From Eledone cirrhosa (taxonomy: Eukaryota): a DNA stretch of 64,000 bases. The stretch spans positions 28,706,001 to 28,770,000 of the forward strand of contig OZ024756.1 of NCBI GenBank assembly GCA_964016885.1, read 5' to 3'. The number at the start of each line of letters is the position of its first letter. Within the stretch, counting starts at the first letter, position 1. The notes below the pieces were generated by a model. That model saw nothing but the letters and a program-made list of their open reading frames with translations, was not told the DNA's origin and did not search any database. Shown in pieces: positions 11,550 to 63,587 of the stretch. Both the position numbers and the translations under genes were made by a program.

Positions 11550-11682
11550 ATTGTATGTATAAGTATATAAAAGGTAAACAGAAATAACAACACAATCAGT
11601 AAAGTATATGAAAGGAATATATTAAGTTAACGCTTGAAATAGCACGAAGAGGGTCTTAACGTTTCGGACACTAGTCCTTCAT
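11550..11682 (-). mobile_element. Truncated copy of the hammerhead element at 55530-55765
   Basis: Reverse complement reads atgaaggactagtgtccgaaacgttaagaccctcttc...tgtgttgttatttctgtttacctttt, matching about 55638-55760; CUG of the core is lost. Confidence 0.8.

Positions 11683-63587: not shown

Follow-up and report, generated by a model that had tools for sequence, protein, structure and literature searches.

The 64-kb stretch of DNA analyzed here (hereafter the window; 35% GC, part of a 3.0-Gb assembly) raises the question of what carries its many hammerhead motifs, and whether the ribozymes matter to the elements that bear them. The initial annotation described 11 complete or near-complete type I folds and four truncated ones, most with a palindromic stem III, and attributed them to a diverse radiation of solo-pLTR or non-autonomous retroelements inserting at TA microsatellites. 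TA microsatellite makes up much of the first 9 kb of the window, which also holds two uniform minisatellites (50098–52423, 40 × 58 bp, 98%; 8977–9613, 9 × 70 bp, 94%).

A motif end was found at most one base from the listed coordinate at all 15 sites; for the minus-strand motif at 55900, the proximal stem I ends at 55901. Seven of the 11 folds called complete or near-complete are intact type I hammerheads, three are damaged copies and one has a core that is variant throughout its family (G). The four motifs called truncated are so, three belonging to family H and one, of family F, starting within the core. Self-comparison and genomic copies recovered the approximately eight families that had been estimated, here named A to H (Table 1). 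The core is canonical (C3-U4-G5-A6-N7-G8-A9, G12-A13-A14, A15.1-U16.1, H17, in type I order) in A, B, C, E, and F, and takes the compensated U3-A8 form in D and in full-length H. Stem III is palindromic or near-palindromic in five of the eight families, E, G, and H having instead a true hairpin of 4–5 bp. The G copy in the window also carries a copy-specific mismatch in stem III. A reading in which the D core is broken at approximately 34630 was rejected, as the actual core lies across the long stem II.

Table 1. Hammerhead motifs and associated coding sequence in the window (positions are those of the 64-kb stretch).
Feature	Position	Strand	Remarks
Family F copy, cut off inside the core	11654..11682	-	
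Family A, 3' part of ORF, 5'-truncated GIY-YIG-type endonuclease, Hydra type (CxCx5C linker, CxxC, CxH, no CCHH)	19134..19658	+	ORF, genomic matches, full copy L036, motifs by eye against PMC8557442
Family A hammerhead, intact, palindromic stem III, extended stem I	19803..19860	+	Predicted cut after 19849; element end is the TA run from 19952
Family B hammerhead, core intact, stem III near-palindromic	23252..23316	-	Carrier ~23200-23480 with inverted tail piece
Family H, hammerhead 3' half truncated in stem II	23555..23596	-	Inside fold-back insertion ~23540-23720
Family C hammerhead, intact	26783..26819	+	Short inverted 5' piece gives hairpin ~26713-26778; family linked to Neptune-type GIY-YIG endonuclease
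Family I hammerhead, damaged core	30091..30134	-	Missed in the initial annotation
Family D hammerhead, intact; U3-A8 compensation in the core (34674), stem II of 62 nt, stem III palindromic	34587..34679	-	
Family B hammerhead, core intact	45091..45156	-	
Family E hammerhead, C3U specific to this copy, inside short fold-back	45790..45838	-	
Family H, truncated 3' half	48250..48290	+	
Family E hammerhead, intact, hairpin stem III	48761..48809	-	Family linked to Hydra-type RT-endonuclease in one locus
Family B-like hammerhead, broken core	49410..49475	-	Inverted partner of 49563 (+)
Family B-like hammerhead, core intact, stem II not closing	49563..49628	+	Direct arm of head-to-head insertion ~49275-49670
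Family F hammerhead, intact; stem II preceded by an extra nucleotide, stem III palindromic without a loop	55631..55666	+	Neptune-type endonuclease link, one locus
Family G hammerhead fold, family-wide U4A (A4 at 55944), hairpin stem III, extended stem I	55892..55965	-	Carrier ~55790-56305
Family H, truncated and decayed 3' half	62615..62655	-	

Folds of this kind might arise by chance in AT-rich, repeat-rich DNA, and the descriptor thresholds had been chosen after the window motifs were seen. A strict type I descriptor gave three matches in the window against a mean of 0.01 in local dinucleotide shuffles, with three or more in 0 of 200; a looser descriptor gave six against a mean of 0.09, with six or more again in 0 of 200. 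With a wider descriptor, the window yielded six canonical, one U3-A8 and one C3U match, compared to means of 0.02–0.05 (60 shuffles). A permutation scan, which is blind to internally split cores, returned only the type I order in the window (three matches) and none of the non-circular orders (SGC, CSG, GCS), nor were such permutations present in 74 sampled genomic stretches among matches scoring at least 15. At the gathering score, Rfam reported no hammerhead in the window, its sole match being the tRNA-like head of an abundant short repeat (48943–49000); at the E-value threshold, the 150 listed of 309 matches were all microsatellite-driven miRNA matches.

The genome-wide load was estimated from these 74 stretches of 10 kb, taken at round coordinates (43 on four large chromosomes) and not strictly random; five further stretches, picked for nearness to known copies or to the window, were excluded. 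The sample contained 100 folds, comprising 71 canonical, 13 U3-A8, 11 U4A and five U4C cores, against 0–2 per class in each of five 740-kb shuffles. The resulting density of 1.35 folds per 10 kb corresponds to approximately 405,000 folds genome-wide (bootstrap 300,000–520,000), a figure to which three array loci contribute 11 of the sampled matches and in which a counted fold does not equal an active ribozyme. By the same rule the window contains seven folds, and is therefore average for the genome and no local cluster. The sampled folds form 26 sequence clusters, in line with the diverse radiation that had been proposed; 26 of the folds lie in head-to-head pairs and 20 in tandem. Stem letters differ across the 26 clusters, the pairing itself being demanded by the descriptor. 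Stem III is perfectly palindromic in 54 of the 100 matches, which the descriptor does not require, and U3 and A8 co-occur in recurring families whereas C3U or G8A alone do not. Although one of the 11 U4A matches looks accidental, a chance origin is extremely improbable and is refuted by the shuffle and core-substitution scans. The window motifs are confirmed as genuine type I hammerhead folds, with self-cleavage itself predicted. Minimum-energy folding gave the full hammerhead for few of 10 stretches, E, F, and G favoring other folds, and all 10 gained 6–15 kcal/mol on dimerizing, non-palindromic ones included, so that the energy gain does not discriminate between them.

Exact pattern counts over the whole genome, which are lower bounds and for which reversed-pattern controls gave 0, amounted to at least 5,562 for C, 198 for D, 13,470 for E, 3,368 for F, 25,327 for G and 2,009 for H. 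For family A, 150 scored genomic matches to the endonuclease were 88–100% identical, and for family B, 40 scored places were 95–100% identical.

The carriers had been described as non-coding; the one at 19803 codes for an endonuclease fragment (Table 1). Family A motifs lie approximately 160–190 nt behind the endonuclease ORF. A full copy of this family (L036) has the structure pLTR-ORF-pLTR and spans 2.96 kb, with reverse transcriptase (RT) and endonuclease and with pLTRs 2,577 bp apart; a single RT plus GIY-YIG ORF between pLTRs was seen in L036 and L042. Judged by eye, family A bears the marks of the Hydra clade of Penelope-like elements (PLEs), namely DKT, a CxCx5C linker, CxxC and CxH, no CCHH, a length below 3 kb, TA insertion and the hammerhead. 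Families A and E have RWR, a conservative change, in place of the RWK of this clade. The likeness by eye of the family A protein to that of an octopus Hydra element (Hydra-1_Obim) would tentatively point to a cephalopod host.

Four other families have endonuclease sequence upstream of the motif, with no TA run intervening. Family G has a Hydra-type endonuclease approximately 1 kb upstream in L202 and L203 (L242 has the same 1.1 kb), and family E has one at a single locus, where RT and endonuclease remnants include DKT. A Neptune-type endonuclease lies upstream of family C in five loci (Pfam GIY-YIG, E 1e-6) and of family F in one. The C and F endonucleases have, by eye and for F at one locus, a C-terminal GIY-YIG domain, a CX2-5CxxC linker and CCHH-type residues; the coding part recovered for C, F, and G consists of the endonuclease and thumb region only. 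Pfam returned nothing for the A and G endonucleases apart from one sub-threshold match to the A ORF, and a PDB sequence search gave no match. Outside the listed sites, family I (L154:6600-7500, with CCHH-type residues) and a further Hydra-type family, J (L242:5468-8470), also lie behind endonuclease ORFs. For B, D, and H, none of 49, 32 and 90 matches, respectively, has an endonuclease within 1.3 kb, most loci reaching only 1.5 kb.

The proposed origin in PLE pLTRs is borne out by the full A element and by endonuclease links for five of the eight families, B, D, and H being the ones left without such a link in the sampled loci. The view that most carriers are solo pLTRs or non-autonomous elements was not supported: because longer copies of A, E, and G (Hydra-type) and of C and F (Neptune-type) run into endonuclease genes, the short copies of these families are most simply taken as 5'-truncated or inverted PLE insertions. 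Insertion at TA was supported in both data sets. By script, each of the 15 listed window sites has a TA run no more than 200 nt away (counting, for 49410 and 49563, their own AT-rich stem III; the 49563 carrier ends at a TA run at 49670), and 82 of 99 sampled folds have one within 200 nt downstream, versus 1276 of 5654 control positions. Upstream, a TA run was found within 200 nt of 33 of 94 folds. Among the genomic copies, 5' ends vary and head-to-head pairs are frequent, and 3' end positions form two clusters in A, B, D, E, G, and H, three in C and one in F.

We therefore consider it very probable that the motifs are type I folds ending at least eight repeat families, five of them endonuclease-linked, and that they are by-products of PLEs which nick TA repeats and copy only the end of their RNA. 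The one-locus endonuclease links of E and F count against this account, as do the single 3' end cluster of F and the lack of an endonuclease near B, D, and H in the sampled loci. According to this model, the PLE enzyme would nick TA repeats and, by analogy with the anole element discussed below, begin reverse transcription on each of the DNA strands from two sites internal to the tail. Copying would usually stop early, leaving a 100–500-bp end, often as an inverted pair, and the ribozyme would simply be carried along; copies spanning the cut site would likely derive from uncut RNA. The dimer cleavage assumed in the initial annotation fits the palindromic families and not the hairpin families E, G, and H. 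Accordingly, A, B, C, D, and F are predicted to cut as dimers or with the help of protein in tandem master transcripts, and E, G, and H could fold alone. As the two motifs of a head-to-head pair are on opposite strands, they cannot dimerize in one transcript, and most dispersed copies are therefore likely inert, or a source of dsRNA if transcribed. Tandem masters and retrozyme-like arrays are where cleavage would be of consequence.

Such arrays are the main argument for a different account, under which the short elements would be non-autonomous ribozyme retroelements in their own right (retrozymes or solo pLTRs), mobilized by PLE enzymes in the form of small RNAs that are circular or of unit length. 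A sister subfamily of D forms tandem arrays of 591–592 bp units, 99% alike, on two chromosomes (L156:636-2274, which also has an inverted copy, and L261:755-2528), and a retrozyme-like tandem hammerhead array with 310-bp monomers was found at L270:644-1264. The lack of an ORF link for B, D, and H in the sampled loci would also be expected, and a 2026 preprint derives animal retrozymes from PLEs (bioRxiv 10.64898/2026.07.22.740005). Against this, five of the eight window families enter endonuclease genes, 5' ends differ between copies, and none of the window copies lies in a tandem array. As a general explanation we regard independent mobility as rather unlikely; it is probably true of some families (D, perhaps B and H) and not of all, and B, D, and H may be non-autonomous. 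By-products of PLE insertion remain the preferred explanation for the set as a whole.

Family H required separate attention, as 0 of 30 unselected copies reach a core, against 7 of 30 that had been chosen for additional 5' sequence (five of them exact). The longer copies have a U3-A8-type core with a stem I and a long stem II. Two earlier readings were rejected on this basis: that H is a plain fold-back without ribozyme, and that its core is a CUGAUGA-like stretch on the 5' side (two genomic matches), the U3-A8 core lying further upstream. Most H copies, including that at 23540–23720 in the window, extend no more than approximately 35 nt beyond the GAAA block on its upstream side, breaking off within the long stem II; this hairpin may stall reverse transcription. 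The tails of H (23650–23720) and E (45865–45925) and a TA-flanked piece at 55440–55487 have a short motif in common, faint in A, which is possibly an enzyme-binding or start signal. Tail remnants of B-like or D-like elements that lack the ribozyme are present at 20170–20320, 26659–26700, 45607–45680 and 35016–35110. The sequence at 22975–23060 is TA-flanked and contains GAAA blocks and short inverted repeats; it had no match among the sampled loci and is possibly another truncated element. In the 3' region of the G copy (56041–56297), a partial tandem duplication of 139 bp is common to many copies of the family.

Family G departs from the type I hammerhead at one core position. Of 41 anchored copies (a few loci overlap), 39 have A at position 4 and none has U, and among 43 distinct aligned rows the core is intact with A4 in 36 and has U4 in one. 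Since U at this position belongs to the definition of the type I hammerhead, G is classified here as a hammerhead-like variant. Its fold is otherwise conventional, with a 5-bp stem I and distal extension, a 3-bp stem II on a U-U base and a stem III of 4–5 bp. Contigs of two other organisms likewise carry A4, no other letter reaching 5% at the site.

Which core changes recur was determined by scanning 27 single changes and three compensated 3-8 pairs. Recurrence at separate loci was limited to U4A, U4C, and U3-A8; the remaining classes each gave 0–3 matches, with each motif at one locus. That only U4A and U4C recur among the 27 single changes suggests that position 4 is tolerated. The U4C family occurs in five of the 74 stretches (L158:4759, L240:9155, L258:1593, L260:6660, L274:5046) and has a palindromic or near-palindromic stem III. 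The U4A family is one of the two most frequent clusters, with 10 of the 100 sampled folds. The core appears to be under selection in the mobilizing masters, with position 4 as the one tolerated site; already in this small sample, no more than three variant classes recur.

These observations can be read in two ways. The U4A core of family G may be a slow but working variant, which we judge slightly better than an even bet. The broader proposal is that G is a working natural U4A hammerhead, present across species and on at least 25,000 Hydra-type PLE ends, in a genome of approximately 400,000 folds where only position 4 and the 3-8 swap vary, which would imply that masters need a working core in vivo; this larger claim we put forward tentatively, as somewhat less than evenly balanced. 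Alternatively, G is a dead hammerhead, U4A being a loss-of-function change in a spreading master whose insertion does not need cleavage, a possibility that we place only just short of even. A sublineage of G (L156, L244) would fit the latter, as in three to four of 73 copies stem II is broken by a common change, and it has therefore spread with a damaged fold. No compensatory changes were seen in the stems of the aligned G copies, the minimum-energy fold of G is not the hammerhead, U4C strongly lowers activity in vitro (Perreault et al., 2011; PMC3088659), and hammerhead cleavage was dispensable in vitro for the anole element (PMC11167929). However, if the core decayed freely in successful masters, other recurring changes should be found, and none recurred. 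The columns diagnostic for G subfamilies also argue against a dead ribozyme: 12 of 117 upstream columns are of this kind, compared to none of the 59 columns that make up the core and proximal stems (p 0.009, counted by eye, with 13 on recount; p 0.08 when the distal stem and bulge are included), although a function of the tail could also explain this. The retention of A4 in the contigs of two other organisms points in the same direction.

PLE hammerheads may or may not serve their elements: they are weak in vitro and were dispensable for insertion in the one reconstituted system. Where families number in the dozens and copies in the hundreds of thousands, selection on the core becomes readable from the variants that spread. 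A working U4A core, if true, would widen the hammerhead consensus, and searches with a fixed core would miss one of the two most frequent clusters. The genome would then amount to a natural selection screen, pointing to a dependence of PLE masters on a functional core in vivo.

Much of this picture is already known. Hammerheads in pLTRs, palindromic stem III, U3-A8 cores, truncated single copies and opposite-strand pairs have been described (PMC4209133), as have TA-preferring Hydra elements, including an octopus hammerhead family (Craig et al., 2021; PMC8557442). As far as our searches reach, the new elements are the estimate of scale, the U4A family and the confinement of recurrence to a few core variants. 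No report of cephalopod hammerhead counts was found in the literature search. The axolotl genome is approximately 10 times larger than the one studied here. Published counts are 2,000–9,000 hammerheads per genome (PMC4209133), approximately 5,000 for mussel and as many as 120,000 for axolotl (PMC7229834), all with descriptors other than ours; with this difference in descriptors, approximately 400,000 folds represent the densest hammerhead load among the reports found. A 2026 annotation of Octopus vulgaris lists 31 recently active Penelope-like families, and none of its passages contains the word ribozyme (PMC13282606). The initial annotation expected that standard repeat annotation would probably leave these elements unlabeled; Rfam and Pfam miss most of the hammerhead and PLE set, but a curated Octopus Hydra family with its hammerhead has been published (PMC8557442).

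The hammerheads of PMC4209133 resemble those described here in being type I, with palindromic stem III, an extra nucleotide before stem II and U3-A8 covariants; they are mostly single motifs from truncated PLEs, occur in opposite-strand pairs and form many families per genome. Their activity was low even as dimers, and the passages considered contain no U4 variant. Natural core variants, among them U3-A8, a U10.1-U11.1 mismatch and the U4C of a viroid, are active or tolerated, the last with low activity in vitro (Perreault et al., 2011; PMC3088659). U4A goes unmentioned in the portion of that text consulted and is absent from the hammerheads listed in File S2 of PMC8557442; literature searches likewise gave no report of a natural U4A core.

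Metazoan non-LTR retrozymes are non-coding tandem monomers with type I hammerheads (PMC7229834; bioRxiv 10.64898/2026.07.22.740005), like the D sister subfamily and the L270 array. The window copies are instead single or inverted; the tandem non-coding monomers that define a retrozyme were found in the D sister subfamily elsewhere and not in the window.

For the insertion mechanism, the closest system is the Poseidon element of the anole (PMC11167929). Its protein cleaves AT-rich DNA on both strands, extends them and starts at two internal RNA sites matching the genomic tail, mainly on uncut RNA; the hammerhead of this element needs protein in order to cut, and insertion in vitro proceeded unimpaired with hammerhead mutants. 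The two 3' end clusters observed here resemble this PLE tail, and the end sites, inverted pairs and TA adjacency would fit the anole model, provided that it can be transferred to these families.

The closest known elements are the PLEs of Craig et al. (2021; PMC8557442). The C and F families share the C-terminal GIY-YIG, CX2-5CxxC and CCHH-type residues of the Neptune clade, an assignment made by endonuclease motifs alone. The Hydra clade includes Hydra-1_Obim of Octopus bimaculoides, with hammerhead and TA preference. In the passages available, that description differs in RWK where family A has RWR, and from the several distinct Hydra-type families found here (A, E, and G, with J outside the window), and no copy-number estimate was found in them. 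Family A and the Hydra clade are alike in their length below 3 kb, DKT, CxCx5C, CxxC and CxH, absence of CCHH, TA insertion and a type I hammerhead near the 3' end; many of the Hydra hammerheads also have a U-U base in stem II, and by eye the family A protein resembles that of Hydra-1_Obim.
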